From an uncultured Alphaproteobacteria bacterium (GTDB lineage: Bacteria; Pseudomonadota; Alphaproteobacteria; Rhizobiales; Xanthobacteraceae), in contig CAVTCD010000003.1 in NCBI GenBank assembly GCA_963733165.1, forward strand, positions 147,516 to 211,515: DNA of 64,000 bases, read 5' to 3'. How positions within the stretch are numbered: position 1 is the stretch's first letter; each line of letters opens with the position of its first letter. The position numbers and the translations under genes are program-made. This document shows, piece after piece, positions 1-61,744 of the stretch. The notes beneath the pieces are model-generated. The model was given only the letters and a program-made list of their open reading frames with translations, was not told the origin of the DNA and did no database searches.

Positions 1-564
1 CGGTGAAATTGGCAAGCCCGATCCGGCCGTCGATCGGCGAGCGGATTTCGGTGTAGCCGAGATTGATCTTGCGCCTGCTCGAGCAACGCCTGCGCCTGCA
101 ACACGTCGGCCTGCGCCGACTGCTCGGCGGCCGCACAGCTGATCGACCGTGGATTGCGGGACGTTCTGGTTTTTCACCAGCGCCTGGGCGCGCTGCAGTT
201 GCAAATTGGCATTGACTTCGGTCGCCTTGGCCTTGGCGAGATTGGCGGTCTGCTGGTCGACCGCGGCCTTGTAGGTGTCCTGCTCGATGCGGAACAGCAG
301 ATCGCCGTTTTTGACCTGCTGGCCTTCGGTGAAATTGCGCTCCTCGATGAAGCCGGGCACCCGCGCCACGACGTCGACTTTGTCGATCGCGACGACGCGG
401 CCGATGAAATCGCCGGTCTCCGTCACTTGCCGGCTGACCACCGGGCGCACGGAAACCGCCGGCGGCGGCGCGGCGTTTTGTGCTGCGGCTGCGCCGCAGC
501 CAACGAGGACTATGAGCGCCCCGAATGCGAGACTGCGATCGCGCAGGCTATTGCGACCAGGCAT
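1..564 (-). pseudogene. efflux RND transporter periplasmic adaptor (membrane-fusion) subunit, 5' part only (gene continues past window start); two apparent +1 frameshifts
   Basis: Manual minus-strand translation from ATG at 562-564 gives MPGRNSLRDRSLAFGALIVLVGCGAAAAQN (lipobox LVGC) ...TGDFIGRVVAIDKVDVVARVPGFIEERNFTEGQQVKNGDLLFRIEQDTYKAAVDQQ...KNQNVPQSTVDQ. The expected continuation AAEQSAQADVLQAQALLEQAQ and then INLGYTEIRSPIDGRIGLANFT is present but in two other frames (junctions near 135 and 68). It is not in the ORF track because no stop lies inside the window. Confidence 0.7.
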
Positions 565-17679: not shown

Positions 17680-17708
17680 CCGGCAATCGCGGCGGGAGAA
17701 TAATCCTC

Positions 17709-18713: not shown

Positions 18714-18807
18714 GCACCCCTCGCCGGCCGGCCGTGAAGCGATTATGTAAGGCGCAACAGGAAACGCCCGAGAATAACGCCTCAGTATAACGCCTAGGGA
18801 CACCGCA

Positions 18808-21362: not shown

Positions 21363-21444
21363 TGGCCACCGATTGTGATCGGCGATCTAAGCCTAAGCCC
21401 GGTTTGACGCAAAGATGCACGCGGCGTATAACCCCACTATCCCG

Positions 21445-21500
21445 TGGTCATTTGAGCCGGCCGGCTTGCAGCCACGTAAAATAAATCGCTAAAAGGCCGG
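21445..21500 (+). promoter_or_regulatory. candidate SAM-II (metA-type) riboswitch-like leader of metZ
   Basis: GGUCAUUUGAGCCGGCCGGCUUGCAGCCACGUAAAAUAAAUCGCUAAAAGGCCGG. The 5' GGUCAUUU can pair with AAAUCGCU, and the internal CCGGCC can pair with the 3' GGCCGG in a pseudoknot-like way. An A-rich CGCUAAAA tail recalls the SAM-II consensus. This is from memory only; no covariance model was run. Confidence 0.4.
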
Positions 21501-21511
21501 GGACGCGTGAG

Positions 21512-21551
21512 CCCGGCCCGAGGATTTGTCCTCCCGGCCGGGTTTTTGTTT
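21512..21551 (+). terminator. intrinsic terminator/attenuator in the metZ leader
   Basis: CCCGGCC(C)GAGG-ATTTGT-CCTC(CC)GGCCGGG forms 7+4 bp with a small internal loop. It is followed directly by TTTTTGTTT, 18 nt before the metZ ATG (RBS AGGAGGG). Confidence 0.6.
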
Positions 21552-21568
21552 GGCCATAGGAGGGCCAG

Positions 21569-28776: not shown

Positions 28777-29983
28777 CCGGCCGTCCTCTCCGTCCGCTTC
28801 GGCGAACGCGCGCGGTTCAATTGGGCGCAAGCGCGGTCGAGCCGGGTCACGCCTTCGGCGATTTCCTGCTCGCTGATGATGAGCGGCGGCAGCAAGCGCA
28901 CGACGTTGTCGCCGGCGCCGACCGTGAGCATGTTCTCGGCGCGGGTCGCATCGACCAGCTCGGCGGCCGGAATGTGCATCCGCAAGCCGACCAAAAGCCC
29001 TTCGCCGCGCACTTCGGCGATCAGCGCCGGATAGCGGTCCTTGATCTCCGCCAGCCGCTGCTTGAACAGGATGCCGATCCGTTGGACGTGATCGAAGAAA
29101 CCCGGCGCCAACATCACGTCGAGCGTCGCATTCACCGCGCTCATTGCCAGCGGATTGCCGCCGAAGGTCGAGCCGTGGGTTCCGGCGGTCATGCCCTTGG
29201 CGGCCTCGTCGGTCGCCAGCACCGCGCCGACCGGAAAACCGCCGCCGAGCGCCTTGGCGAGCGACATGATGTCGGGTGCGACGCCGGCGCGCTGGTAGGC
29301 GAACAGCTCGCCGGTGCGGCCCATGCCGCTCTGCACCTCGTCGAACACAAGCATGAGACCGTGCGTATCGCACAGCTCGCGCAGCGCCCGCAGGAACGAC
29401 GGCTCGACGATGCGCACACCGCCCTCGCCCATCAAGGGTTCGATCATGATGGCGGCGGTTTCATTGCCGATGGCGCGTTTGACCGCATCGAGATCGCCGA
29501 ACGGAACCTGATCGAAGCCGTCGACGACGGGGCCGAAGCCGTCGAGATATTTCTTCTGCCCGCCGGCGGCCAAAGTCGCCAGCGTGCGGCCGTGGAACGC
29601 GCCTTCGAAGGTGACGATGCGGAACCGCTCCGGGTGCTCGTTTACCGCCTGGAACTTGCGCGCGGTCTTGATCGCGCCTTCCACCGCTTCGGCGCCGGAA
29701 TTGCAGAAGAACACTACGTCGGCGAAACTTGCCGCGCACAGCCGCGCCTGGCGGCACGCTCGGACTCCGGAATCTCATACAGGTTGGAGACGTGCCAGAG
29801 CTTCTGCGACTGCTCGGCAAGCGCGGCGACCAGATGCGGATGGGCGTGGCCCAGCGCGTTGACGGCGACGCCGGAGGTGAAATCGAGATAGCGCTCGCCG
29901 TCGGTCGCGATCAGCCATACGCCTTCGCCCCGCTCAAAGGCGAGGTGCACGCGCGCGAAAGTTCCCATCAAATGCGATGTCAC
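28773..29983 (-). pseudogene. argD: acetylornithine aminotransferase, interrupted by one -1 frameshift near 29750
   Basis: ORF 29714..29983 ([24 protein letters not shown]...[29 protein letters not shown]) and ORF 28773..29714 (FFCNSGAEAVEGAIKTARKF...) are colinear ArgD pieces. The second frame reads [19 protein letters not shown] just upstream of its first Met. Confidence 0.85.
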
Positions 29984-30353
29984 GGCTCAAACCCGCGAAC
30001 GCTGCGCTGTAACATTCCGCACAGCTAAAACGAAATGTGCCGCCTCTCCGGGCGGCACGGACACATATTCTATTTCCGTGCGGCTCACTGTCAACACACG
30101 ATAATTGCGCACCGCGAACCCCTTTTGTACCCAGTTCATCCACACGCAGCAGGAATGTGTGGACTCATTTTGGTCGAAGTCTTGCGCCAGACTCCGGGCG
30201 TATTGTAGCCTTTCCATTGCCAAGTACGACATTTCGTGCGGCGGACAGTCTTCTCAAGCGTCGGTGTTGAGTGCGTGTTGGGCGGCTACGCGCTGCCTGG
30301 CTCAATGGGGGATTCCCGAAAAGGGGGGACCGGACGTGCAAGGAGGATTGGGC

Positions 30354-37888: not shown

Positions 37889-38966
37889 TCACGATATGTC
37901 CGATTTTTCCCGAATCCGCGCATTGACGGTGCTCATCGGCGCCGACGCCGCTTGAGATATGCGACGCGCGGCGCGGCCGAGCAAGGCCTCGCGAATTCCA
38001 AGCACGCCGAGCGCGAGCACCCAGGGGAATAATGTAATACAGCAGGCGAAACAGCAGCAGGCCGGCCAGCAGGTCTTCCTTGTCGAACTGCCAGAGCGCC
38101 ACCATCATGGTGGCGTCGAATACGCCAAGTCCGCCGGGCGCGTGGCTGGCAAAACCGAGCAGTGTCGCGGCGACAAAAATCACGGCCACGGTGGCAAAGC
38201 CGAGATTCGGCTCGTCCGGCATCAGCATGTACATGGCGGCGGCGCAGCAGCACAGATCGACGATGCCGATCGCGATCTGAATGAGCGTCGACGGGCCGCC
38301 AGGCAGCGTCACCTGCCAGCCCTCGCGGCCGATGACGCGCGGCTTGACCCAGACCCAAGCCACATAACCGGCGAGCATGCCGAGGATCACCAGCGCCAGC
38401 ACGCGATTGCACCACAGCGGCAATTGATCGAGCGCGCGCGCCGCTTGCGGAGCATCGAGAATGCCCAAACCCAGCACGGTGGCGTTGCCGAGCCAGAAGG
38501 TCAGCCCGGCGATGAAGCAGATCTTGGTGACCTCGATGACGGAAAGGCCCCAGCTGGAATAGATGCGGTAGCGCACCGCACCGCCGGAAAAGACGCTGGC
38601 GCCGACATTGTGGCCGATGGCGTAGCTGGTGAATCCCGCCAGTGCGGCGATGCGATATGGCACCTCGGAACGGCCGATCGCGCGCAGCGCGAACAGGTCG
38701 TAGAACGTCAGCGTCAGATAGCCGGCGGCGACGAACAATCCGGCAAAAATGAGCGTCGGCCAATCGGTCGCTTCCAGCGCGTCGATCAGCGCGTCGGGAT
38801 CGATGTCGCGCAGGATGCGGTAAAGCACCACCGCGGCGACCGCGATGATGGTCAGGCTGAGCGCGACGCCGATCCGGCTCCAGCCGATCTTGCGGCCGAA
38901 AAAATGCGCGGTCCCGCGCAGCTTCTTCAACATACCGCGTTCCGGACCGGCCGCTTGCGCATCCAT
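37889..38966 (-). pseudogene. flippase-like / lysylphosphatidylglycerol-synthase TM-region (UPF0104) membrane protein with a +1 frameshift near 38020
   Basis: ORF 37503..39404 taken from MDAQAAGPERGMLKKLRG. The multi-TM body ends ...LLFRLLYYIIPL and then runs as Arg-rich junk through phoR. The +1 frame reads VLALGVLGIREALLGRAARRISQAASAPMSTVNARIREKSDIS and stops at TGA 37889..37891, 30 nt before the phoR start. Confidence 0.7.
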
Positions 38967-46191: not shown

Positions 46192-46469
46192 TCCCCTCGT
46201 ACCCGGCTTGAATATCGCTTCTCCGCGCGGCGTCCGGCGGCCATCCCATTGTCGCGATCACGATGTCGCGGCCGGCCGGTTGCGAAAAAGCGAGAAAGCT
46301 CCCCATCGACGAAAGATCGCGCGAAAGAGCGCGGACCTTCCGCAGTCATTCAAAGCAGTTTGCGTTAAACGCCGGTTAAATGCAGGCCGAAGGCAAAATT
46401 AGAGCGCTCCGGCGGCGGATTTTGGCAAATCCGGGAACACTCTGTGGCGCCGTGGTTCCATTTTTATGG

Positions 46470-46817
46470 TTACCGTATCTTATAGAGCGCGTGGCGGCGG
46501 TTGCGGGTGAAGGGGCGCACCTGTTTGGGCCAGCGTCCGGTTTCGGAAGCCTTCGCCCATTCGCGGCTGGTCAGGACATGCGGACCGTCGATCTCGTAGA
46601 TCGCGCTATGGCGCGGGCCGTCCTGCGCGATGGGCTTTTCTTCGCCGCCGATATTGAGCACGAACGGCTCGCCGGCGAGCCGCGCCACCGCATGCACGCC
46701 GGGCACTTGCAAGAGATTGGGCACGTGCTCGGTGTCGTAGACCTCGTTGAACAACGCCTCCTTGTCGGCGTCGACGTCCATCGAGGCGACGAACAGATAT
46801 TTGGATTCGATCGGCAT
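46470..46817 (-). CDS. EthD/DUF4286-like (dimeric alpha/beta-barrel) protein
   Basis: ORF track, 115 aa. Its ATG shares one base with the TauD stop. Contains FNEVYDTEHVPNLLQVPGV. Confidence 0.6.
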   Translation of the reverse strand: MPIESKYLFVASMDVDADKEALFNEVYDTEHVPNLLQVPGVHAVARLAGEPFVLNIGGEEKPIAQDGPRHSAIYEIDGPHVLTSREWAKASETGRWPKQVRPFTRNRRHALYKIR

Positions 46818-47719
46818 CAGAACGGCTGGTCGCCGTTGATGGTGCAGCGGCGCATGACGCGCTTCAAGCGCGCCTCATCGAAGCCGGTGGCGCGGTGCAA
46901 CGTACAGCGGTTGTCCCACACCATGCACTGGCGCGGCGTCCAGCGATGCGTGTACACGCGTTCCGGCGGCGTAATCGTGGCGTTGAGCTCCTCGATCAGC
47001 GCGCGGCCTTCGTCATAATCCATGCCATCGATCGATTCGGCATGATCGCCGAGGAAAATCGCCTTGCGTCCGGTGTCGGGATGGGTGCGCACGATCGGAT
47101 GCGCGATCGGCGGCACCTTGGCCTTTTGTTCCGCCGTCATCGGATCCTCGCCGTGGCGGCGGCTGCGCGAAAAATCCAGATTGTGGATAGCGCAGCGGCC
47201 CTCGATGCGCGCCTGCATCGCCGCCGGCAACAGATCGTAGGCCGAATACATGTCGGCGAATTCGGTTTCGCCGCCCGCTTCCGGCACGATTTCCGAATAC
47301 ATCATCGTCGCCTGGCCGGTGCGCTCGCGCCAGGAGCCGTCGGTGTGCCAATACAGCGTGCCCTTGTCCGGATGCTTGCCGCTCGGATTGCCATCGCGGT
47401 CGAGGTTGGACAGCATGTAGATTTCCGGCTGGTCCTTGTAGCCGTGATACTGGTTCATCACATGGATCTGCACCTCGCCGAAATTGCGCGCGAAGGCGAC
47501 CTGCGTCGCCGGCGGCAGATCGACGTCGTGGAACACGATGAGCTGGTAGTCGAGAAAAGCTTCATAGATTTTGGCGAACAAAGCCGGCGAAACCGCCTGT
47601 TCCAGCGTGATGCCGGAAATCTCGCAGCCGAGCACCGGATGCAGCGGCCTCACCTGGAACGGCCAGTCGCGGCCCTTACGTTTGGCTGTTTTAAGCTGCG
47701 CTTGCGCCAGTTGCGCCAT
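46817..47719 (-). CDS. TauD/TfdA family Fe(II)/2-oxoglutarate dioxygenase
   Basis: ORF track, 300 aa. RBS GGGAGG, the WHTDGSW (HxD) motif and a distal His in HRWTP. Confidence 0.85.
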   Translation of the reverse strand: MAQLAQAQLKTAKRKGRDWPFQVRPLHPVLGCEISGITLEQAVSPALFAKIYEAFLDYQLIVFHDVDLPPATQVAFARNFGEVQIHVMNQYHGYKDQPEIYMLSNLDRDGNPSGKHPDKGTLYWHTDGSWRERTGQATMMYSEIVPEAGGETEFADMYSAYDLLPAAMQARIEGRCAIHNLDFSRSRRHGEDPMTAEQKAKVPPIAHPIVRTHPDTGRKAIFLGDHAESIDGMDYDEGRALIEELNATITPPERVYTHRWTPRQCMVWDNRCTLHRATGFDEARLKRVMRRCTINGDQPF

Positions 47720-47802
47720 GACGACCTCCCGGCAGGTTCTTGGTCTGCGTTGATGCGATTATGCCAGCGCCGGCGCGCGGTTCATAGCCGGGGGATATTT
47801 CC

Positions 47803-48681
47803 TCAACGAACAAACTTGTAGCGAAACCGGTCGCCGTCGGCCTCGATGCGGCCGGTGGTTGGATGCGGGAAGTGGATCGGCAGCACGAACGTGCCGGTTC
47901 CGGCGGTGTCGCTCAAGAATTTTCGCCGCGAGCGGGCGGCCTGCGCCGGATCCCAATCGAAGATCGTCGACCAGTCCGGCTCCCGGCACTGCAAGGCGTG
48001 ATGCATCATATCGCCGACGACGACGGCGTGAAGGCCGCGCGAGCGGATATTGACGCAGCAATGGCACGGCGAGTGGCCCGGCGTCGGAGTGAGCGTGAAC
48101 GTATCGTCGAGCGCGAAATCGTCGTCGACCAGGAGCGCCTGGCCGGCCGCGACCACCGGCTCGCAATTATAGCCCCACACATTGCCGCCGCCGCCGGGGC
48201 GATTGCCGCCGCGTTTATATTCGTCTTCCCAGGCGGCGTATTCGCCCTTGTGGAAAATGTATTTGGCGTTCGGGAAGGTCGGCACCCATTTGCCATTGCG
48301 CAGCATCGTGTTCCAGCCGGTGTGGTCGATGTGCAGGTGGGTGCAGAACACGTAGTCGATATCTTCGAAGCGCAGGCCGGCCGCGGCAAAGCCGTCGAGC
48401 CAGGGCTTTTTGGGAAAATCCATCGGCGGCGGATAGCCCTTGTCCTCGCCGGTGCAGGTGTCGATCAGGATGGTGTGCTTGGGCGTGCGCACCACGTAGG
48501 TCTGATAGGTGATGACCATCTTGCCCGACGCCGGATCGAACACTTCCGCATCGAGCTCGGCGAGGTGGCGTTTGCCGACTTCGGGGCTATAGGCGGGAAA
48601 CATCTCTTCCGGCTTTCGCCACGGCCCGTCGCGTTCGATGATACTGGTGATGGTGACGTCGCCAATCGTGAGCTTTTTCAT
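47803..48681 (-). CDS. MBL-fold metallo-hydrolase (lactonase-like)
   Basis: ORF 47803..48735 taken from the internal MKKLTIGDVTITSI. Contains the HLHIDHTGW (HxHxDH) motif. Confidence 0.85.
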   Translation of the reverse strand: MKKLTIGDVTITSIIERDGPWRKPEEMFPAYSPEVGKRHLAELDAEVFDPASGKMVITYQTYVVRTPKHTILIDTCTGEDKGYPPPMDFPKKPWLDGFAAAGLRFEDIDYVFCTHLHIDHTGWNTMLRNGKWVPTFPNAKYIFHKGEYAAWEDEYKRGGNRPGGGGNVWGYNCEPVVAAGQALLVDDDFALDDTFTLTPTPGHSPCHCCVNIRSRGLHAVVVGDMMHHALQCREPDWSTIFDWDPAQAARSRRKFLSDTAGTGTFVLPIHFPHPTTGRIEADGDRFRYKFVR

Positions 48682-48816
48682 ATTAACCCATCCAATGATC
48701 CGGCCGGGAATCTTGCCGAGCTTATACCCGAGCATATTGTACGAAGCCGCGAAACGCCCATAGTATGGCTTGGGGAAAGTACGACTCGGGAACCCCGAGC
48801 CGGCGGGGGCAACATT

Positions 48817-49680
48817 ATGAGAATCCTGCAGTGCGCCTGCATCATCGCCTGCATGACCATTGCAGTTGCAATTCCCTATCCATTTCTACCGCGTGAGCCG
48901 TTACCCGTCGGCGACGTGAAAGCCGCCGTCGCTCCCGTGCAAGATCCCCTGCAAGATCCCGTGCAAGAACAGACGGCAAAGGCGGAGGGTGATTTTTCGT
49001 CGGACTATGCCCCTCATCCAATGCCGTCAAAAGAGGAGCTCTTAAATCTCGCTTATTACGCCTATTCCGAGGTTCCGCCCGACAGGAAACCGGCGGATAC
49101 CGTTTTAGATGCACTGCAAAACACTGCGCTTGGCACGCCGAACGAGGAGATCAAGCTTGCATCGCATGCATTCGGTCTGGACTTCGGCTTTATGAAAGCT
49201 GTCGCCAGAATCGAATCCGATTTCGATCCCACGCAGCAAACCGGATCTTATATCGGGCTGTTTCAGCTCAGCCATTACGAGTTCAACAAATACGGGGCCG
49301 GCGACATTGTCAGTGCGCGCGACAACGCCATCGCTGCCGCCTATAAATTTACCACCGCGGCGATCCTGTTCGAATTGGTGACACACAAGAAACCGACCTT
49401 GGATGATCTTTATTTGATCCATCAACAGGGAACGCAGGGCGCGGAGGAACACGTCAGCCATCCGGAGCGGATAGCCTGGAAGTCGATGTGCGCCACCGAC
49501 GAAGGCAGGGAAAAAGGCGAGAAATGGTGCAAGCGCGCCATTTGGCTCAATACGCTTCCGGCTCTAAAGAAGATTGTGAAAAAAGTCGATAATCTGACTT
49601 CAGGCGCGTTTGTGGCGATGTGGCAGCAGCAGGTGGCTCTATTCTATGCGCGCTATTCCGACGCGATTACCGAGAAATAA
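48817..49680 (+). CDS. SLT-domain (lytic transglycosylase-like) membrane-anchored protein, compositionally atypical
   Basis: ORF 47863..49680 taken from the internal MRILQCACIIACMTIAVAI (TM helix). SLT-like motifs AVARIESDFDP, IGLFQLS and AAAYKF. Many A/T-ending codons, unlike the neighbours. Confidence 0.7.
   Translation: MRILQCACIIACMTIAVAIPYPFLPREPLPVGDVKAAVAPVQDPLQDPVQEQTAKAEGDFSSDYAPHPMPSKEELLNLAYYAYSEVPPDRKPADTVLDALQNTALGTPNEEIKLASHAFGLDFGFMKAVARIESDFDPTQQTGSYIGLFQLSHYEFNKYGAGDIVSARDNAIAAAYKFTTAAILFELVTHKKPTLDDLYLIHQQGTQGAEEHVSHPERIAWKSMCATDEGREKGEKWCKRAIWLNTLPALKKIVKKVDNLTSGAFVAMWQQQVALFYARYSDAITEK
48937..48972 (+). repeat. in-frame 12-nt x3 (third copy degenerate) tandem repeat
   Basis: GTGCAAGATCCC CTGCAAGATCCC GTGCAAGAACAG encodes VQDP LQDP VQEQ. 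Confidence 0.7.
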
Positions 49681-49682
49681 AA

Positions 49683-50024
49683 CTATTTGAAGCGTTCGCC
49701 CGGCGGCGCGATTTCAGTCACCAGATCGCGAATGAGCTTTTTGTTCGGCAACGGCGTCAACGTCATCTCGCGCGGTTCGAGCCGTGCGGTGCAGGCATAG
49801 ACCGTCTCGCCGTCGAGCTGGATCATGCATTCCTTGCAGGCATTGGCGTTGATGCAGGAGAAGCGAATCGCCAGCGACGGATCCTGGTTGATGCGCAGCC
49901 AGCGCAGGCCGTCGAGCACCGACTGGCCCGGCTCGAACGGCACCTCGAACGTCTGCCATCGCCCGGCATCACGCTCGGCGCCGCGCCAGATTTTCAGCGT
50001 GGCCTTTGCTGCTCGCGCGTTCAT
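49683..50024 (-). CDS. 2Fe-2S iron-sulfur subunit (succinate dehydrogenase/fumarate reductase Fe-S N-domain-like)
   Basis: ORF track, 113 aa. Cys cluster SCINANACKECMIQLDGETVYAC. Its ATG overlaps the stop of the upstream flavoprotein gene (ATGA). Confidence 0.75.
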   Translation of the reverse strand: MNARAAKATLKIWRGAERDAGRWQTFEVPFEPGQSVLDGLRWLRINQDPSLAIRFSCINANACKECMIQLDGETVYACTARLEPREMTLTPLPNKKLIRDLVTEIAPPGERFK

Positions 50025-51732
50025 AATGCGAGCGCCTCGGCCGGCGCGCCGGAAATCCGCATGTCGCCGCCGCGCAGCGTGACGCGCTGATGCAGCTGCC
50101 AGTGCGGCAGCGTCTGCGGAAAATCTTCGCGCTGATGCGCGCCGCGGCTTTCGCCGCGGTTGAGCGCGGCTTGCGCGACCGCGCGCGCCACCGCGAGCAT
50201 GTTGCGCAGATCAAACCATTCGAGCCGCTGCAGATCGAACAATCCCCCGCCGAAGGAGGAGGCCGGCGGCCGCTCGCCAAGCTCGGCCGTCAGCGCGGCA
50301 ATGCCGGCCAGCGCGCGGGTGAGCTTTGCGCCGGTGCGCAGCGGGCCGACATCGTCGGCCATGATCGTTTGCAGACGCGCGATCATCGCCGCGGTATTGC
50401 GCGCGCCGCCACTCGGCGCCGCGGCGCGCACCAGATCGAGCGCCGCGCCCGTGTCTTGCGCGCGGAAATTTTGCCGCGACTCCTGTTTGGCGCGGTCGGC
50501 GGCGCTGCGGCCGGCGCGGCGGCCGAACACCAAAGCCTCCGTAATGGCGTTGCCGGACAGCCGGTTGGCGCCGTTCGGGCCGCCGACCACTTCGCCGGCG
50601 ACGAATAAACCGGGCACCGACGTCGCCATGCTGGGCTCGGCGACCACGCCGCCCATGTGGTAATGCGCGATCGGCGCCACCTCGACCGGCATTTTGGTCA
50701 GATCGATGGCGTTGGCGGCGAGGCGATCGATCACCGGACCGAACGCCGCGCGCAACGCCGCTTCGCTGCAATGCTCGAACGAGAGATAAGCGCCGCCATG
50801 CGGCGAGCCGCGCCCGGCCTCGACTTCTTTCATGATGGCGTAGGTGGCGAGGTCGCGCGCCAAGACGTATTTGCCGTCCTCGTCCGAACCGTATCGCGAG
50901 GTGAATTCTTCCATCGACCCATTGAGCAGCCTGCCGCCGAGCTTGTAGCGGAACGGATCCCACATGATCGGGTCCATGCCGACCAGCCGCGGCGCCAAAT
51001 GCCCGATCGGGAAGAACTGCACGAATTCCATGTCGATCAGCGCGCAGCCGGCGCGCAAGGCGAGCGCGTAGCCGTCGCCGCCCATATTGGTCGAGGCGCT
51101 GTTGCGCCTATAAAGGCGAGTAAGCCCGCCGGTCGCCAGCACCGTTGCCTTGGCTGCGATGATGACCGGCGCGCCGGAGCCGAGATGATAGCCGACCGCC
51201 CCGGCGACCTCGCCATCGCTCGACAACGAGATCGACGATGCAGAGGTCGCCGACCTTGCGGATGTTCGCTTGCGCGCGATCTGCGTGCGCAGCGTCTTCG
51301 ACACCGCCGGGCCGGTATTGATGAAATCGACATAGACGCAGCGCGGCCGGTCGTGGCCAGGCGCCGTGGTCGCGGCGATGTGACCGTCTTTGCGCGCCCA
51401 GCCGACGCCCCAGCGCATCGAGCTCGCGGATGCAGTCCGGCGCGTCTTCGCACAGCAGCTGCGCCAAATTTTCGTCGCACAGGCCGCGGCCGGCGGCGAT
51501 GGTGTCGGCAGTAATGGTGCTGCCGGATCGTCGGGCACCTCTTCGCCGAGCGCCACGGCCACCGTCATCTGCGCCATCACGGTGGCGCCGCCGCGCCCGA
51601 TCAGGCTCCGGTCGGCAGAGCATGCAAACCGCGCGCGCCGCGCCGCGCCGCCTCGATCGCGGCATACATGCCCGCGGCGCCGGAGCCGATGACCAGCACA
51701 TCGGTTTCGAGGGCGATGGGGTCTGGGGTCAT
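50021..51732 (-). pseudogene. FAD-binding flavoprotein (SdhA/FrdA/NadB-like), 6-7 frameshifts in its first 600 nt
   Basis: Colinear pieces lie in three frames: MTPDPIALETDVLVIGSGAAGMYAAIEAARRGAR / DRSLIGRGGATVMAQMTVAVALGEEVPDD / RQHHY / ADTIAAGRGLCDENLAQLLCEDAPDCIRELDA / WGVGWARKDGHIAATTAPGHDRPRCVYVDFINTGPAVSKTLRTQIAR / ANIRKVGDLCIVDLVV / DGEVAGAVGYHL... The remaining about 370 codons are uninterrupted (ORF 50021..51580). Confidence 0.8.
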
Positions 51733-51754
51733 GCCTGAAGGTAGAATACCGCCC

Positions 51755-51804
51755 GTCCCCGCGAAAGCGGGGACCGAGACTGGATTCCCGGCTTTCGCGG
51801 GAAT
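51755..51804. repeat. two adjacent REP-type hairpins
   Basis: GTCCCCGCGAAAGCGGGGAC (51755..51774) and ATTCCCGGCTTTCGCGGGAAT (51784..51804). They translate as the spurious IPAKAGNPVSVPAFAG. Confidence 0.75.
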
Positions 51805-51811
51805 AAGCGGG

Positions 51812-53144
51812 TTACCCCGGCAGCGGCTTGCCGTTGGTCTCCGGCAGGAACGGCGCGACACAGAAGCCGAGGACGTAAATACAGGCGATCGTCATTGCGG
51901 CGTGGCTGTAGCCGCCGAACTGCACGATCAAGACGCCGGCAAACAGCGGCCCGAGAAAGGCGATGAAGCGCGGCGCGTTGAAGGCGAAGGCAAGCCCGGT
52001 CGCGCGCGAGCGCGTCGGGAACAGTTCCGGCAGCCAGACCGGCATCCAGGAATATTGTCCCAGCGTGAAGAACGCATTGACCGCCGCCGCGATCAGCAGC
52101 AGATCGAGATCCTGCGTCCACAGGAACAGCACCGGCGTCATGACAAAGGCCGCCGCGAAGTAAAGCATCGTGATCGGCTTGCGGCCGAAACGGTCGGCGA
52201 GAAAGCCGAGGCTGATATAGCCGAGGATGGCGCCGAAATTGTAAGCCATGCCGGCGTAACTCGCCCATTGCGGGCCCGGCAGGCCGGCTTTGGCGGCGAC
52301 CGAGGCGACATAGGGCGGCACCCACGACGAGATGCCCCACCAGGCAAGCGTCGTGGTCAGCGACATCAGAAACACCAGGACGGTGCGCCGGCGCGTCTCC
52401 GGCTCGGCGAACAGGTCGGCGACGGTGAACCGGTTCAGCGCCGTTTCCTCAGCCGAAAGCGCGGCGCCGGCAGCCTTGCGGGCGCGGGCTTCGCGGCGGC
52501 GCGCGTCGGTCTGTTGCCAAACCGCGGATTCATCGATCGAGGTCCTGATCCACAGCGTCAGCAGCGCCGGCAGAATGCCGATGACGAACATATAGCGCCA
52601 GGCATCCGGTCCGAAGCCCGAGACGAACAGCCAGACGAATGAGGCCAGAAAGAAGCCAATGCCAAGCCCGCATTGCATCAGGCCGGCGCCCTTGCCGCGC
52701 GCGTGCTGCGGCCACAGCTCGGCCATCATCGAGGAGCCGGTCGCCCATTCCGAACCGATGGCGATGCCGACGGCAAAGCGCAGCAGCGCAAACGAAATCC
52801 AGTTGAACGACAGCGCGGTGAGCCCGGTGAGCAGCGAATAGCCGAGAATGGCGTAGATCATCGTCCGCTTGCGGCCGATATAATCGGCCAGAATGCCGCC
52901 GCAGACGCCGCCGATGCCCCAGCCGAGCAAGGTGATGGCAATGATCGTGCCCGCATAGCCGGGAATTTGCGAATATTGCGCCGGTTCGAGCAGACTGTGC
53001 ATGGCGGCGCCGACGGTGAGGATCAGCGCATAGGTTTCGTAGCCGTCGAACAGCCAGCCGAGATTGGCGGCAGCGAGCGTGCGCCATTGGCTCGTGGTGA
53101 GCGAGCGATACCAAGGCAGTTTGCCGGCGCGTGAAATCCGTCAT
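51812..53144 (-). pseudogene. MFS transporter (sugar/aromatic-acid porter-like) with a +1 frameshift after codon 6
   Basis: ATG 53144 has a strong RBS GGGGAGGA and reads MTDFTR. The body AGKLPWYRSLTTSQWRTLAAANLGWLFDGYETYALILTVGAAMHSLL... (continuing as ORF 51812..53002) is in the +1 frame, and that frame has a TGA just upstream. Confidence 0.75.
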
Positions 53145-53199
53145 GTCGATCCTCCCCTTATATTTTCTTGCCGCGAAGTTAGCCGAAAGATCGCGCAAG

Positions 53200-53713
53200 T
53201 CATAGCGCCAAGCCATAATGCCAGGTCATGGCGCCAAGTCGCAGACGCGGGTCACGATGCGGGGCGGCAGGCGCGGCAAACGCCGCCGCCAGCCGCGCGG
53301 CAAATTGCCGTTCCATCTCCTTGGCCTTGGAGCGCAGCACCGGCTGGCCGAGACTGCCGAGCTTGCCGGTCAAGGCGGCCTCGACCTCGTAGTCGATCTT
53401 GGTGGCGTCGCCGTCTTCGGTCAGCCTGGTCAGCGCCGTCGCGGTGAGCCGGCCGACAATGCCGAGCGGGGCGCCTTCGACCTTGGCCTCGATCTCGCTC
53501 GGCGCCTCGGCGCGCACGACTTCGACCGTCACCTTGAACTTGAATTTCATGTAGGCGACTTTGGTTTCGAACACGCGCCGCGTAAGTGTCGGGCGCGGTC
53601 TCGGCCAGCTCGCTGACGCCGTCGACGCAGGACGCGAAGAAACGCGCATCGCGCACCGCCTTGTAAACCTCGGCGCGCGGCGCCTTGACCGTCAGTTCTC
53701 CGGAGAATTTCAT
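53200..53713 (-). pseudogene. CoxG/SRPBCC family protein with a +1 frameshift near 53575
   Basis: ORF 53252..53713 starts MKFSGELTVKAPRAEVYKAVRDARFFASCVDGVSELAETAPDTYAAR. ORF 53200..53649 continues VFETKVAYMKFKFKVTVEVVRAEAPSEIEAKVEGAPLGIVGRLTATALTRL... The 3' end is uncertain. Confidence 0.7.
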
Positions 53714-53728
53714 GGCGACTCCGCGCTT

Positions 53729-54245
53729 TCACGCGCGCAACGCCGTGAGCATGTCCTTGATATATTCGTCGGCGCTCGAAATCACCAGCATCATGACGTG
53801 CGGCCGCAATTGCGCGAGCATTTTCGACAGCGTCTCGTCGCTGGTCGCGGCGCTGCCGATGATCAGCGCCGTCGTCATGACGTGCTTGACAGCTGCAGGC
53901 TTCGCCGATGATGGCCGCCGCCGCGGCGTTTTCGCCGGCGCTCGCCACCATCACCACCAGATCGGCCGACGTCCACCTCGTCGACCAGATCCTTGGTGCG
54001 GCCGGCGAGATCGTTGAGCCAGCCGCCCATCGAGAAGCGGCTCGCCCTGCCGCGGCGCGCCGGAAAACGCCGAGGCGGTGAGGAAACTCGCGCGCTGCCA
54101 TGGCGAGCTGCGCCAGCTCCTTGACGATGCGCTCGCTCGGCGTGTCGAGCGCGATCACCTTGACGGCGCGCGGTTGCGAATTCGGCCGGTCGATGCGGAA
54201 TTTCGCCTCCGCCGCCGAACTCATCCGGGCCGATTCACTGTCCAT
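53729..54245 (-). pseudogene. hypothetical protein, about 4 +1 frameshifts
   Basis: RBS GGAGGAGA and ATG 54245. Pieces: MDSES...KVIALDTPSERIVKELAQL / PWQRASFLTASAFSGAPRQGEPLLDG / WLNDLAGRTKDLVDEVDV / ADLVVMVASAGENAAAAAIIGEACS / KHVMTTALIIGSAATSDETLSKMLAQLRPHVMMLVISSADEYIKDMLTALRA-stop. Junctions near 54105, 54027, 53967 and 53891. The total length of 517 nt is not a multiple of 3. Confidence 0.55.
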
Positions 54246-54358
54246 CGCGCGCTCTCCTCCGCACAGCGCTATCCGCAATATAGCGGAAAGTCGCAGATAT
54301 TTCATTATCCCGCAGTCTTGTATAAAGCGCTCCGTCCGAAGCTCGTCGCAGGAAGCTC

Positions 54359-54674
54359 ATGTCCGCAGCAAAGCGCCTCGAACTATGCACCACCGCCGAG
54401 GTCGCGCCCGGCGCGGCGCTCAAGGTCGAGATCGGGGATTTGGCGCTCGCCGTGTTCAATGTCGACGGCGAATTCTATCGTCACCGACGACGCCTGCACC
54501 CACGGGCCGGGCTCGCTGTCGGAAGGCTATATCGAGGACGATGTCGTCGAATGCAATTTCCACAACGGGCAGTTCAATATCCGCACCGGCGAAGTGGTGT
54601 CGCCGCCCTGCATGGTGCCGGTCAAGACCTATCCGGCCACGGTCGTCGACGGCAAAGTGACGATCGAGGTGTGA
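54359..54674 (+). pseudogene. Rieske-type [2Fe-2S] ferredoxin with a +1 frameshift near 54480
   Basis: ORF 54359..54712 reads MSAAKRLELCTTAEVAPGAALKVEIGDLALAVFNVDGEFY. The tail of ORF 54078..54674 continues VTDDACTHGPGSLSEGYIEDDVVECNFHNGQFNIRTGEVV..PCMVPVKTYPATVVDGKVTIEV, with CxH...CxxH Rieske ligands. Confidence 0.8.
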
Positions 54675-54788
54675 GCAGGCACAATTGGGCCGTGGCCCAT
54701 CTGGCGAGCTGATCGATCGTGATTTCAGTTGACGAACCGCGCGGCCCCGGCTTGTTGCTGTCCAACAAATTTATGGAGGATCGCCCCG

Positions 54789-55893
54789 ATGACGAGAACA
54801 AAGCCGCCGTTCCGCGCCGACGTGGTCGGCAGCATTTTGCGCACCGCGCCGTTGAAGGAGGCGCGCGCGAAGCGCGAAAAGGGCGAGATCACCGCGGCGC
54901 AACTCAAGGAGGTCGAGGACCGCGAGATCGAGAAGATCATCAAGAAGCAGGAGGAGGTCGGGCTCAAATGCGCGACCGACGGCGAATTCCGCCGCTCGTG
55001 GTGGCATTTCGATTTCTACGGCATGCTCGACGGCGTCGAGATCGACGAGCTCGATCACGGCATCCAGTTTCAGGGCGTGCAGACCCGGCCGCGCACGCCG
55101 CGCATCACCGGCAAGCTCGGCTTCTCCAACCATCCGATGCTGGAGCATTTCAAGTTTCTCAAGGCGCACACCCGCGTCACGCCGAAAATGTGCATCCCGA
55201 GCCCGGCGACGCTGCATTTCCGCCTCGAGCCGAACGCCATCGAGACCAAGGACTATGCCGACCGCAGCGCCATCTTCGACGATCTGGCGAAGACCTACCG
55301 GCAGGCGATCCGCGGCTTCTACGACGCCGGCTGCCGCTATCTGCAATTCGACGACACCGCCTGGGCCTATCTGTGCTCGCAGGCCGAGCTGAAGAAGGCG
55401 CGCGACCGCGGGCTCGACGCCGACCGGCTGCAGCAGGACTATGCCCGCGTCATCAACATGCGCGCTCGAAGGCAAGCCCGCCGACATGGTGGTCACGACC
55501 CATGTCTGCCGCGGCAATTTCCGCTCGACCTGGATTTCCGAAGGCGGCTACGAGCCGGTCGCCGAGACCATGCTCGGCAAGCTGAACTACGACGGCTATT
55601 TCCTCGAATACGACACCGCGCGCGCCGGCGGCTTCGAGCCGCTGCGCTTTCTGCCCAAGGGCAACAAGATCGTCGTGCTCGGCCTCGTCACCACCAAATC
55701 CGGCACGCTCGAAAAGAAGGACGACGTCAAGCGGCGCATCGACGAAGCGACCAAATTCGCCGCGCTCGATCAGCTTGCTCTGTCGCCGCAATGCGGCTTC
55801 GCCTCGACCGAGGAAGGCAATGTGCTCGCCGAAGAAGAGCAATGGGCGAAGCTGCGCATGGTCGTCGAACTGGCGGACGAGGTGTGGGGCTGA
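54789..55893 (+). pseudogene. cobalamin-independent methionine synthase (MetE C-terminal domain)-like protein with a +1 frameshift near 55460
   Basis: ORF 54729..55988 taken from the internal MTRTKPPFRADVVGSILR (RBS GGAGGA) reads through to ...DYARVIN. ORF 55441..55893 continues ALEGKPADMVVTTHVCRGNFRSTW...LALSPQCGFAST. Confidence 0.8.
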
Positions 55894-55899
55894 CCGGTC

Positions 55900-56623
55900 T
55901 CAGACTTGCGCGATCAGCCTTCTTGCGCCGAGCCGCTTGTGCACATGCACCATCAGCGCCATGGCGAACAGCGGCGTCGCCAGATTGACGATCGGGATCG
56001 AGACGAAGGCGGCGATGAACAGGCCGCCGACATAGACCGTCGCGGCATTGCGCTTGCGCAGCGCTTGGCTTCGGCCGGCGGCCGGAACCGCATGGCGGCA
56101 AGCTCGAAATATTCGCGGCCGAGAATATAGGCGGTGGCGAGGAAGAAGATCACGGCGCCGAAGCCGGCGAAGAGCAACAGCGGCGCGGCGCACAGATAGA
56201 TCAAGACCGCCAGCAGCGCCGTCTTGATGCCTTCCCACAGCGCCAGCCACAGCGGCAGCGCCTTGCCGGGCGGATCGGCCGGATAATGCTCGCGCTCGAC
56301 TTCGTCGGCGATGCGGTCGGCGAAGAAGCTGCCGACCACGGCCGTCACCGCCGGCATCAGCAAGACACTGCCGACGACAATGCCGAAGCCCGGCGGCGAT
56401 CGACAGCAGCCAGGCAAGGGCGCTCGCCGGCGCGTGCGCCTGCGGGCCGAGCGTCGTCTCCACCGAGGCGCCGCCGGCGCCGAGCAGATGCACGATCAGC
56501 CGTTCGAGCGCGATGCCGGCGACGACGATGAGCGCCAGCGCAAGCCCGATCGATCTTCCACAGCACCGCGCGCAGCGGCGGCGCGAACATCTGGGTGATC
56601 GCGTTGATGGCGTCGTCGAGCAT
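55900..56623 (-). pseudogene. EI24/CysZ-like membrane protein, 3 frameshifts
   Basis: RBS AGGAGG and ATG 56623. Pieces: MLDDAINAITQMFAPPLRAVLWK / SIGLALALIVVAGIALERLIVHLLGAGGASVETTLGPQAHAPASALAWLLSIAA / GFGIVVGSVLLMPAVTAVVGSFFADRIADEVEREHYPADPPGKALP...YFELAAMRFRPPAEAK / LRKRNAATVYVGGLFIAAFVSIPIVNLATPLFAMALMVHVHKRL... Confidence 0.7.
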
Positions 56624-56822
56624 GGCGGCCTCCTTGCGTATCCCGGGGGCGGCAGCGTAAACGGTGCCTGACGCGGATCGCGCGGACCGTCGACGAGCTC
56701 TGCGAGGTACCGATCTCGGATTCCCTGCGAGCGCATCACTGCGTGACTTCGCGCGTCCGTGAATGTCGTTCAGGCATCGGCTCTTAAGCGCAGCCGCCGC
56801 AATGACGCAGCGCGTCACGCGG

Positions 56823-57638
56823 CTAGCGCTTCGCGTCGTCGTCCGCGCGCTGCTGCGGCACCAGCGGAATATCCGCCGCTTCGCGGCGCGCCGCGACAGG
56901 TCGGCCCATTGCAGCGACTTGTAGTCGAAGCCGCGCGCGATGGTCGGCTTGACCACGTTGAAATAGGGCGAAATGTCGAAGTCGCGCGGGCAATACAGCG
57001 AGGAGTGGCGGATTTCCAAAATCTCCTCGCGCGCCTGCCGGCTGCCGGTGAGCTTGATCTTGGGCAGGATCGGATAGCGCACGGCGCGGAACGCATCCGC
57101 GATCAGCGCCGAGCAGATCAGCCGCGTCGGATCGCCCGAGCCGAGCGCGATCATGCGCCGGCGCCAGCGGTGCGGCACCGGCAGCGGCAACAGATAGCGC
57201 AACAGGTCGATGATGTTTTTCAGATCGTAGGCGAAGCCGATGCGCTCGACGGCATAGGCGCAGACCAGCGCGCAATCCGCTTCGGTCAGGCCGACCGGCC
57301 GGCAAATCCGGGTGTGGAAGCGGGTGTATTTCGACAGCGGCGCCGAGACGACGCCCTCGCCGACATTGGCCTCGATCAGCACATGCGGCTCGCCGTCGGC
57401 GGTGCGTGCGGCCGGCGAGCGGCCCGACATAAAGCGCCGAATGCGACCAGGTCGACTGCGTGAGGTATTTGATGACGCCGGCGATGTGGTTGTTGCCCTC
57501 GACCAGGAGCACGTCGCCGGGCTGCAGCGATTGGCGCAACGCCTCGGGATCGCTCGGCGTAAACGGCTCGTAGCCGTGCACCGGCTTTTGCAAGTAGCGG
57601 GCGATCACCCGCCCAACGCCGTCGAGCATCCTGCTCAT
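56823..57638 (-). pseudogene. YiiX-family permuted papain-like protein, 2 frameshifts
   Basis: RBS GGGAGG and ATG 57638. Pieces: MSRMLDGVGRVIARYLQKPVHGYEPF...PGDVLLVEGNNHIAGVIKYLTQSTWSHSALYVGPLAGRT / ADGEPHVLIEANVGEGVVSAPLSKY...ICSALIADAF...YKSLQWADLS / REAADIPLVPQQRADDDAKR-stop. Junctions near 57418 and 56890. The family name is from memory. Confidence 0.65.
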
Positions 57639-57857
57639 GGTGGGCCTCCCAGCCACGCGCGCGCGGTTTTGCCGCGTCTCTGTTTTTGGACTTATTTTAT
57701 GTCCTCTTTTATGCCAACTCCCTTGCAATTTGGTTCACACCGCGGCCGCCCCGATTGACCGGGCTTTAAGCATGGCGTTTGCCCGCCCTGCGCCGTTCGG
57801 TGCAATCTGCGTCGGGGTATCAGCCGAAAAGCAATTGGAAACCATGCCGCGCAAACC

Positions 57858-59323
57858 ATGCAGCAAGTGAGCCGACGTTCGTTCCTCGCCGCCTCGGCCG
57901 CGTTTGCGGCGCGGCCGGCATTTGCCGCGACGCCGGCGCGCGGCTTCGGGTCCGGTCGACGTCGTGATCGTCGGCGCCGGCGCCGCCGGCATCGCCGCCG
58001 CGCGCAAGTTCGCCGCCGCCGGCCGGCGCTATGTCGTGATCGAAGCGACCGATCATGTCGGCGGCCGCTGCGTCACCGACACTAAAGAGCTTCGGCGTGC
58101 CTTACGATCGCGGCGCGCACTGGATCTACCTGCCCGACGTCAATCCGCTGACCAAGCTCACGCCGCACCGCGGCATCGACGTCTATCCGGCGCCGCAGAG
58201 CCAGAAGGTGCGCATCGGCCGCCGCTTTGCGCGCGAAGGCGAGCTCGAGGATTTTCTGACCGCGCAAGTGCGCGCCACCCGCGCCATCGACGATGTCGCG
58301 CGCAAGGCCGATGTTCCGTGCGAGCAGGTGGTGCCGGCCGATCTCGGCGACTGGCGCGCGACGGTCGAATTCGTGCTCGGCCCGTATAATTGCGCCAAGG
58401 ATCTGGCGCAGGTGTCGTCGTTCGATTTCGCCAAGGCGGCCGAGCGCAATGCGGCGGCGTTCTGCAAGCAGGGTTTTGGCGCGCTGCTCGCCGCGCTGGC
58501 GCAGGGACTCACGGTGCAGCTGTCGACGCCGGCGAAGTCGATCGACACGCGCAGCGGCGTCAGCGGTCGAGACGGCGAAGGGCACGATCAACGCCCGCAC
58601 CGCGATCGTCACCGTGCCGACCAATGTCGTCGCGTCCGGCGGCCTGAAATTCATTCCCGATCTCGGCCACCATCAGATCGACGCCTTCGGCCGCATGTCG
58701 CTCGGCAGCTACGACCACATCGCGCTCGAGCTCAACGGCAATCCGCTCGGGCTCGACAGCGACGATCTGGTTTTCGAGAAATCGGCCGACACGCATACCG
58801 CGGCGATCCTCGCCAATATTTCCGGCACGCCGCTGTGCACGATCGACGTCGCCGGCGCGTTCGGCCGCGATCTGTCGGCGCAAGGCGAAGCCGCGATGTT
58901 CGACTTCGCCGCCGATTGGCTGGCGAATCTTTACGGCGCCGAGATCAAAAACGCGATCGGCCGCAAGCACGCGACGCGCTGGAACGCCGATCCCTATGCG
59001 CTCGGCGCCTGGTCGGCCGCCGTGCCGGGCAGCCAATTCGCGCGCCGGCAATTTCTCGATCCGATCGCCGACAATGTCTGGTATGCCGGCGAAGCCGCGC
59101 ACGAAACATTGTGGGGCACGGTCGGCGGCGCCTGGGAATCCGGCGAGCGCGCCGCCGACGCGGTGTTGCGCCAGCTCGGCCCGCTCAAAGCCGCGCCGGC
59201 GGAGAGCCGAAGCCGCGCCGGCGCGCAAGCCGCAACGCGCGCGCGCCGAACAGCAAGAGCCCTGGCAGCGCGCCGCACCAATATTTTGGCGACACGCCCA
59301 GCATCATGCGGGAAGAACGGTAG
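57858..59323 (+). pseudogene. TAT-signal flavin-containing amine oxidase, about 4 frameshifts
   Basis: Pieces: MQQVSRRSFLAASAAFAARPAFA (twin-Arg signal) / VDVVIVGAGAAGIAAARKFAAAGRRYVVIEATDHVGGRCVTDTK / SFGVPYDRGAHWIY...LSTPAKSIDTRSGV / VETAKGTINARTAIVTVPTNV...NVWYAGEAAHETLWGTVGGAWESGERAA... The last frame change lets the gene stop at 59323, abutting pheT. Junctions near 57945, 58085, 58560 and 59205. Confidence 0.8.
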
Positions 59324-61744
59324 TTACTCCCGCAGCACGCCGCCGGTGCGCTTGTTGACCTCGCCGACGATTTTCGCCGCCAGCGCCTCGATCTCGGCAT
59401 CGGTCATGGTCTTGTCGCGCGGCTGGATCGTCACCGCGATGGCGATCGACTTGCGCCCCGGCGCGATGCCTTTGCCCTCGTAAACGTCGAACACGCTCAC
59501 GCCGGTAATGAGCTTGCGGTCGGCGGAGGCCGCCGCGCGCAAAATATCGGCGGCCTTCACATTGCGCTCGACCACGAAAGCGAAATCGCGCTCGACCGGC
59601 TGAAACGGCGACAGATCGAGCGCCGGTTTGGCGCGCGTCGCCCGCACTTTCGGCTCGGGGATGCGTTCCAGGATGACCTCGAAGGCGACCAGCGGGCCTT
59701 CGGCATCGAGCGCATCGAGCGCGTTCGGATGCAGCTCGCCGAAATAACCGAGCACGTTTTGCGGCCCAATCTGGATCGTTCCGGAGCGGCCGGGATGCAG
59801 CCAGGCCGGGCCGCCCGGCACCACTTGCAGCGCCGACGAAGGCGCGCCGGCCGCCGTCAGCACGGCGAGCGCGTCGGCTTTGGCGTCGAACGCGTCGACT
59901 TCGCCGTCGCGCTTTGACCAATGGCGGCCGATGCCGGACGGCTTTGCCAGCGCGCGGCGGATGCCGGCGGCGGCGGTAAACTGATCGGCCGGCTGATCGC
60001 CGCGAAAAATCTGGCCGACTTCGAACAGGCCGGTGTCGGCAAAGCCGCGGTCGGCGTTCTTTTGCGCGGCGGCGACGAGGCCGGGAATGAGGCTCGGCCG
60101 CATGTCGGACAGGTCCGCCGCGATCGGATTGGCGAGCGCCAGCGCCGCGCTGCCGCCGCCAAACAGTTCGGCGCGCGGCTTGGCGATGAACGACCAGGTC
60201 ACCGCTTCGACGAGGTTGCGCGCGGCCAGCGCGCGCTTGGCTTTGCGGGTTCGCGCCTGAAGCGGCGTCAGCACCGGCTTGCGCGCCGCCGCGCCGCGCG
60301 GAAACGGCGTCGGCGGCACGCGATCGACGCCGAGGATGCGCACCACTTCCTCGACGATATCGGCCTTGCCCGCCACGTCCGGTCGCCACGACGGCACCGC
60401 GACTTTCACCCGCTCGCCCTGGCCGGCGACGAAAAAGCCGAGCCGTTCGAGCACGCGGCGCAGCTCGGTGAGCGGCACGTCGATGCCGGCCAGCCGCTCG
60501 AGCTCGGACTGCGGAAAATCGACGATGCGTTCGGGCGGCTCGGCGCTGCCGGCGACCGTGACTTCCGACGGCGTGCCGCCGCACAAATCCATCACGATGC
60601 GGGTGGCGAGTTCGAGCCCCGGCAGCATGAAGGCCGGATCGACGCCGCGCTCGAAGCGATAACGCGCGTCGGAATTGATGCCGAGCTTGCGTCCGGTCTG
60701 CGCGATGTTGATCGGCTCCCACAAGGCCAATTCGATCAGCACGTCGGTGGTGGTTTCCGAGCAGCCGGTCTTTTCGCCGCCCATGATGCCGGACAGCGAC
60801 TCGACGCCGTCCGCGTCGGCGATGACGCAGACCGCCTCGTCGAGCGTATAGGTCTTGCCGTCGAGCGCCAGCAGCGTTTCGCCTTTTTGCGCGCGGCGGA
60901 CCGTAAGGTCGCCATGCACTTTGGCGGCATCGAACACGTGCAGCGGCCGGCCGCGATCGTAGGTGATGAAGTTGGTGATATCGACCAGCGCATTGATCGG
61001 GCGCAAGCCGATCGCGGTCAGCCGCTTTTGCAGCCAATCCGGCGACGGGCCGTTCTTGACGCCGCGTACCAGACGCAAACCGAACGCCGGGCATAACGAC
61101 GGCGTGGCGCCGAAGTCGAGCGTCACCCGCACCGGACAGGGAAATTCGCCCTTCACCGGCTTGATGGCTGTGTCCTTGAACTTGCCCATGTCGGCGGCGG
61201 CGAGGTCGCGCGCGATGCCGTGCACGCCGGTGGCGTCGCCACGGTTCGGCGTCAGATTGATCTCGAGCACCGGATCGTCGAGGCCGGCGAATTTGGCGTA
61301 AGGCTCGCCGACCGGCGCGTCGTCCGGCAGCTCGATGATTCCCTCGTGGTCGGCGGAGATTTGCAGCTCGAATTCCGACACCAGCATGCCGCGGCTTTCG
61401 ACATCGCGGATTTTGCCGACGCCGAGCGTGATGTTTTTGCCGGGAATGAAGGCGCCGACCGGCGCGAATACGCCTTTCATGCCGGTGCGCGCATTCGGCG
61501 CGCCGCACACGACCTGGATCGGCTTGCCGTCGCCGGTATCGACCATGCAAACCCGCAGCCGATCCGCGTTGGGATGCTGCTTGGCTTCGGTGACGCGGGC
61601 GATGACGAACGGCGCGAACTGCTTGGCCTTGTCCTCGATGCGCTCGACCTCGAGCCCGATCATGGTGAGCTTGTCGGCGATTTCGCCGAGCGAATGGTCG
61701 GTGTCGAGATGCTCTTTGAGCCAGGTGAGGGTGAATTTCATCAT
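59324..61744 (-). CDS. pheT: phenylalanine--tRNA ligase beta subunit
   Basis: ORF track, 806 aa. [14 protein letters not shown] is the typical PheT N-terminus. Confidence 0.95.

Follow-up and report, generated by a model that had tools for sequence, protein, structure and literature searches.

Real gene decay, as known from Mycobacterium leprae and from recent symbionts, is marked by deletion bias, insertions and deletions (indels) of varied size, nonsense codons and an evenly relaxed ratio of nonsynonymous to synonymous substitution rates (dN/dS), and its lesions are often common to sister genomes. The subject of this account is a stretch of DNA in which nine consecutive genes are all split across reading frames. 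The stretch, referred to here as the window, comprises 64,000 nt of contig CAVTCD010000003.1 (positions 147,516 to 211,515 of the forward strand; assembly GCA_963733165.1) from an uncultured bacterium of the Xanthobacteraceae, and the nine broken genes form a block bounded by an intact 2Fe-2S gene and by pheT. Very probably, these breaks are errors of the consensus sequence, concentrated in one patch of a long-read metagenome assembly, and not a biological state of the genome. The assembly itself appears to be long-read, and most likely Nanopore-only.

Two bodies of work on long-read assembly are relevant to such a locus. The long-read metagenome-assembled genomes (MAGs) of the Microflora Danica (MFD) survey are Nanopore-only, having been assembled by Flye and polished once by Medaka, and carry Nanopore-associated errors at lower coverage (PMC12313526). 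Work from the same group as the MFD catalogue found that R10.4 assemblies are near-finished only at ~40-fold coverage (PMC9262707). In collapsed long-read assemblies, nearby allelic variants lead to misalignment and thereby to INDEL errors that mimic frameshifts (PMC8445201).

Relatives of the locus were gathered by scanning one genome per species with the reconstructed MetE-like protein of the block, which yielded 80 loci, nearly all of them from soil Xanthobacteraceae MAGs. The closest relative, L006, is an MFD long-read MAG that follows the gene order of the window throughout 44.9–64.0 kb, with a DNA identity of 87–92%; the alignment of the two has 74 gap openings in 50.0–59.3 kb and five in 59.3–64.0 kb. 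The genes of 45–64 kb were aligned to six orthologues each, taken from long-read and short-read MAGs, with our own frameshift-aware protein-to-DNA dynamic programme, and DNA multiple alignments were built with the same six. A frame junction was accepted if at least half of the references supported it. Two reference-free checks were made, namely a codon-usage frame model over the whole window and a plot of G+C content at third codon positions (GC3).

The alignments place 26 junctions, in 25 clusters, between 51221 and 59281 and across all nine genes. Each gene runs over two or three frames, and its pieces line up in order along a single orthologous protein, with 80–94% amino acid identity. An earlier note on this DNA, made from the sequence alone, had described nine consecutive split genes with colinear pieces and roughly 24 junctions, and the alignments bear this out. 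Its counts for the individual genes were also near-exact: the junctions found number six in the FAD flavoprotein gene, one each in the MFS transporter, CoxG, Rieske and MetE-like genes, four in the gene of unknown function, three in the EI24 gene, two or three in the YiiX gene, and five or six in the amine oxidase gene.

The block has 2.97 junctions per kb, whereas the 19.9 kb of coding sequence outside it that was checked against references has 0.20 per kb (binomial p = 4e-10). Of the sequence outside, 8.5 kb of flanking coding sequence has no junction, and 11.3 kb at 29–42 kb has four. Against six orthologues each, no junction was seen to the left in the genes at 45142–50024, the 2Fe-2S gene among them, or to the right in pheT, pheS, the DinB-family gene and rplT. 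The intact flanks reported earlier stand. Together with two frame changes in an RND adaptor gene at the window start, the four junctions at 29–42 kb also account for the six or so that had been estimated for the remainder of the window.

That these junctions are alignment artefacts, or errors of the reference sequences, is scarcely credible. Several references are indeed long-read MAGs with errors of their own, but four to six independent references agree at each junction, among them the short-read MAGs L001, L004, L005 and L009. In addition, the codon-usage frame model and the GC3 plot, which use no references, switch frame at the same places in the block.

The lesions have a distinctive spectrum. 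The block junctions comprise twenty with a net change of +1 and six with one of −1, and the indels are of 1, 2, 4 or 5 nt. At the insertions, the DNA alignments show an extra base in the window that all six orthologues lack. No lesion is common to the window and any of the six orthologues used per gene, the DNA alignments contain no window-private deletion of more than 3 nt in the block, and no in-frame stop was found in the ~3000 codons of the block after frame correction. This agrees with the earlier observation that no nonsense codon or large deletion is needed to explain any of the breaks.

The earlier note had left two explanations standing, a locally error-rich stretch of assembly and a genuinely decaying accessory block. 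The second would amount to very recent pseudogenisation, in which nine dispensable genes were freed from selection and have since gathered real frameshifts, and the lesion spectrum makes it improbable. The 20:6 excess of +1 changes and the lack of any deletion longer than 3 nt run counter to the deletional bias of bacterial pseudogenes, which Mira, Ochman and Moran reportedly described in 2001. Of random substitutions in the block codons, 2.9% would by computation yield a stop. If five to ten substitutions are assumed for every indel, then four to eight stops would be expected, and the probability of seeing none is 0.02 to 5e-4. Pseudogenisation must further accommodate the fact that not one lesion is common to relatives. 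A related idea is that the indels are real but stem from a very recent, insertion-biased mutational burst, for instance in a single tract of error-prone repair or replication, which knocked out 8 kb of dispensable genes in this lineage and preceded any accumulation of substitutions; we regard this as very doubtful.

The strongest evidence for an assembly artefact comes from the related assemblies. All 80 related loci were screened for frame junctions with 20 reference proteins. Of the 43 loci from MFD "bin" MAGs, which are Nanopore-only, 20 had junctions, as against none of the 37 loci from other projects (Fisher p = 5e-7). The 37 are mostly short-read and include "ilm_asm" assemblies of the same survey and contigs with MEGAHIT-style names, with the technology unconfirmed for a few projects. 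Frameshift-aware alignment of the flagged genes gave 50 single-base insertions, 13 single-base deletions and three other events. Their ratio of +1 to −1 changes, 52:14, is indistinguishable from the 20:6 of the window (odds ratio 0.9, p = 1.0). Like those of the block, the events are clumped and lie outside homopolymers, and they occur in essential genes as well. In the Nanopore-only MAG L028, for example, pheT is broken at ten junctions and pheS at two (~16370–19410). A signature that strikes pheT and pheS in one sister long-read MAG, and that none of the other assemblies shows, is hard to square with pseudogenisation, and it favours the first of the two earlier explanations, an unpolished and locally error-rich long-read stretch.

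Two pairs of the related loci have an event at the same place. L008 and L067 share a single-base insertion at one orthologous pheT site (context CTGCGCTCGGA...), and L016 and L019 share one at a pheS site (context CCTATCG.TGCGAACTC). Site-sharing between independent long-read MAGs hints at a sequence-dependent component of the error that the k-mer test described below missed.

The sequence context of the insertions was examined at 68 sites, those of the window and of the related loci combined, with tests aimed at the classical Nanopore error and at methylation-motif error. Homopolymers are not enriched at these sites, where the run-length distribution equals the background, and no k-mer motif is significantly enriched after correction for multiple testing. 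If the block is an artefact, it is one outside the homopolymer subclass. The same results bear on programmed ribosomal frameshifting or transcriptional slippage, by which the cell would decode the genes despite the shifts. Recoding of this kind would suit the protein sense that is kept on both sides of every junction, but it would have to operate at 26 sites in nine unrelated genes, with no homopolymer, slippery motif or common context at those sites and with orthologues that are unshifted at all of them. It deserves next to no credence.

Selection on the block was assessed in several ways. Relative to L006, the block has a dN/dS of 0.18 and the flanks have one of 0.14, and purifying selection thus appears intact. 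Since dN/dS alone cannot separate very recent decay from an artefact, lineage-specific and distance-to-junction tests were added. One comparison was set aside: against the L006 ORF (open reading frame) at 8368–9294 (− strand), the YiiX gene gave a dN/dS of 1.24 with very low dS, and this pair was excluded from the lineage test. The L006 ORF used is probably in the wrong frame or itself damaged; YiiX compared normally with other references, such as L014 at 88.7% identity.

The window-specific amino acid changes are unevenly placed. Eleven of the 72 are no more than 9 nt from a junction, a zone that holds 4.3% of the codons. In the FAD gene, 17 such changes fall in the 430 nt rich in junctions (51205–51633), and the remaining 1.1 kb has 12. 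No excess is seen in the MFS gene, with a ratio of nonsynonymous to synonymous changes (N/S) of 10/39 in the window versus 10/38 in relatives. This co-clustering of amino acid changes and junctions at a scale of ~100 bp accords with patches of poor consensus and not with uniform neutral decay. For pseudogenisation it poses the further difficulty that long stretches, 1.1 kb in the FAD gene and 1.3 kb in the MFS gene, have been left untouched.

How might such a patch have been written? In the reading favoured here, the consensus caller would have left ~20 spurious extra bases and ~6 missing bases in ~8 kb (51.2–59.3 kb), each of which would shift the frame of an otherwise normal, selected gene. 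The local cause would be weak or mixed read support. Read depth may have been low, or the stretch may have gone unpolished. Alternatively, reads of two co-occurring close strains may have been merged, such that sites at which the strains differ were written as both alleles, side by side.

Many insertions have this allele-doubled look. The window has TA[T][C]GTC at 54479 (TAC or TAT in orthologues), GCG[C][G]TG at 53575 (GTG or CTG), AA[G][A]TCG at 56554 (AAG or AAA) and GA[T][C] at 51526 (GAT or GAC). The pattern was tested by asking how often the inserted base is an allele that orthologues carry in the neighbouring column, with simulated random insertions put through the same processing as the control. 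Matches were found at 15 of 18 sites in the window versus 58.5% expected, and at 34 of 50 sites in the related long-read loci versus 53.2% expected. The pooled figure is 49 of 68 versus 54.6% expected (p = 0.002), with alleles taken from orthologues. There is thus moderate support for a merger of reads from two close strains, with both variants kept in the consensus. Within the artefact reading, strain mixing takes roughly half of the weight, and low depth or an unpolished stretch takes the rest.

A collapsed duplicate, in which two diverged genomic copies were merged into one faulty consensus, is a variant of the artefact rather than a rival to it. It would produce the same merging of alleles, with inserted bases that match the alternative ones, and there is a related bin in which the locus is found twice: L010 and L021 are contigs of a single bin (MFD02671.bin.1.99), and both carry the MetE-like locus, at 91–92% identity to the query. 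That bin therefore holds either two close genomes or a duplication. For the present locus the idea, which the earlier note had raised, is nonetheless unlikely. Self-BLAST, applied within the 64-kb window, finds no second copy or partial repeat, and the close relatives L006 and L081, which have long contigs, show a single syntenic copy in the region fetched.

Several observations weigh against a consensus-error patch and have to be set beside the evidence above. First, the error signature is not the textbook one, as the homopolymer-length signature of classical Nanopore error is absent at the 68 sites, and the significance of the allele-doubling test is only moderate. Second, no near-identical intact copy of the locus was found: with the unbroken MFS protein as the query, no match exceeded 96% amino acid identity. 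The best homologue was 96% identical, and the contig on which it lies, L081, is no closer than L006, with 88–90% DNA identity to the window. Third, a three-sequence comparison of the window, L006 and L081 gives a window-specific N/S in the block of 72/150 (0.48), versus 40/159 (0.25) for L006 and 31/89 (0.35) for L081 (p = 0.01), and shows no window excess in the flanks. When only sites more than 30 nt away from all junctions are counted, the ratio remains at 0.43. A raised ratio along the window lineage is what pseudogenisation would predict, and a mild but real relaxation of selection, which may be at work here, would also give it. Fourth, the patch ends ~45 nt short of pheT and affects only genes of dispensable type. 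The earlier note had counted this in favour of biology, and the clean state of the flanking essential genes points the same way. The argument loses its force with the patch of the same type that lies within pheT and pheS of L028.

The gene content of parts of the region also varies among relatives, which would suit pseudogenisation of an accessory block. Two segments vary within the clade, one of ~15.6 kb (39.1–54.7 kb) and one at 56.6–57.85 kb that contains the YiiX gene. In L043, L064, L077, L059, L070 and L056, the counterpart of 29–39 kb of the window runs straight on into that of 54.7 kb, with no YiiX segment. The edges of the error patch and these breakpoints in gene content do not coincide. 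Base composition likewise fails to set the block apart, with a G+C content of ~64% both there and across the window.

The nine genes and their neighbours are as follows, with names from the earlier note that are upheld by the Pfam families found on the intact orthologues of L081, a JGI (Joint Genome Institute) contig on which the block genes are all unbroken. To the left of the damage is the 2Fe-2S (Fer2_3) gene at 49683..50024 (−), a single frame against six orthologues, whose L081 orthologue matches PF13085. The error-dense zone begins at 51221, ~1.2 kb to the right of this gene and inside the FAD flavoprotein gene (FAD_binding_2 and Succ_DH_flav_C; 50021..51740, −). The six FAD junctions lie at 51221 (+1), 51268 (−1), 51416 (+1), 51510 (+1), 51526 (+1) and 51618–51624 (+2 or +5), all within the N-terminal 400 nt. 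With none in 50033–51218, the clumping that had been reported for this gene is evident.

The MFS transporter gene (51812..53158, −) has one junction, at 53129 (+1), 10 codons past the start and supported by six of six references; the stretch 51818–53125 is a single frame and 95% identical to the L006 protein. The CoxG-family gene (53200..53713, −) also has one, at 53575 (+1; six of six references), where the window reads GCG[C]GTG and orthologues have GTG or CTG. Past this junction, the CoxG frame overruns the ends of all orthologues by ~20 codons (53200–53263, −). Either the protein really is longer at its C-terminus, or another error close to the stop codon has escaped detection. The gene for a conserved protein of unknown function (53732..54305, −) has junctions at 53891, 53970, 54037 and 54107, all +1 and supported by four to six of six references. 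Its intact 170-aa orthologue in L081 has no Pfam match.

On the opposite strand, the Rieske ferredoxin gene (54359..54674, +) is broken once, at 54479 (+1; six of six references), where the window reads TA[TC]GTC and orthologues have TAC or TAT. The gene for the MetE C-terminal-like protein (Meth_synt_2; 54789..55893, +) is broken at 55458 (+1), again with six of six references, and the reconstructed protein is 94% identical to its orthologues. Next is the gene for an EI24/CysZ-like membrane protein (55921..56632, −), with junctions at 56063 (−1), 56385 (+1) and 56554 (+1), supported by all six references. The YiiX-like gene (Peptidase_C92; 56829..57679, −) has two firm junctions, 56884 (−1) and 57404 (+1), and a weaker one at ~57651 near the N-terminus. 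Finally, the amine oxidase gene (Amino_oxidase; 57770..59323, +) has five firm junctions, at 57939 (+1 or +4), 58084, 58565, 59205 (+1) and 59281 (net +1), and a weaker one at 57862. The right boundary of the block is pheT itself (59324..61744, −), which is intact, with 807 codons in a single frame that are 93.7% identical to L006.

Junctions of the same type recur outside the block at lower density. A smaller patch affects one gene at 29145..30057 (−), with junctions at 30030 (+1), 29984 (+1) and 29749 (+2) supported by three or four references. An isolated junction at 38027 (+1), with support from four of four references, lies in the gene at 37892..38966 (−). The gene for an RND efflux adaptor, cut by the window start (1..480, −), changes frame near 135 and 74 according to the frame model and three-frame translation. 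The frame model also flagged atpI/atpB/atpE (2.3–3.8 kb) and ctaG/ctaB (12.4–14.7 kb), which inspection of the ORFs showed to be ordinary gene boundaries, and a Pro/Ala-rich ORF at 5723–6535, where it showed a low-complexity stretch; none of these is a frameshift.

Exact-protein look-ups with the 2Fe-2S and pheT proteins of the window returned no record, and tRNA and Rfam scans for island boundaries found nothing in or adjoining the block. The sole Rfam match in the window is a SAM-alpha riboswitch (RF00521) at 21434–21512 (+), with 77 bits versus a gathering score of 36, just upstream of an ORF at 21560–22750 (+).

As biology, the block carries no weight, and its relevance is to practice. Automated annotation would list nine genes of the block as pseudogenes, among them those of a transporter, a flavoprotein–ferredoxin pair and an amine oxidase, and would thereby understate the metabolism of the organism. 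Nor is the case isolated, as almost half of the sampled 20-kb loci in Nanopore-only MAGs of the clade carry dense errors that are mostly single-base insertions outside homopolymers. This suggests that quality control focused on homopolymers would miss such errors, and that frameshift-aware annotation or strain-aware polishing is needed ahead of claims of pseudogenes or gene loss from such genomes.

Three known systems resemble the block in part. With decay of the type seen in Mycobacterium leprae or recent symbionts it shares a run of adjacent frameshifted genes next to intact essential neighbours, but the deletion bias, the spread of indel sizes, the nonsense codons and the shared lesions are not seen in it, and an evenly relaxed dN/dS does not appear to be. 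The assembly of Trypanosoma brucei Lister 427 offers a likeness in its allele-linked INDELs that resemble frameshifts (PMC8445201), as the block insertions often match alleles at the adjacent column. That organism, however, is a diploid eukaryote sequenced with PacBio, whereas the "alleles" of the block would be those of co-occurring bacterial strains. The third counterpart is the residual indels of Nanopore-only MAGs (PMC12313526, PMC9262707). While the published accounts stress homopolymers and low-GC genomes, and the errors of the block and its sister loci lie outside homopolymers, the two have in common that 1-nt indels split conserved genes, and that they do so in patches.

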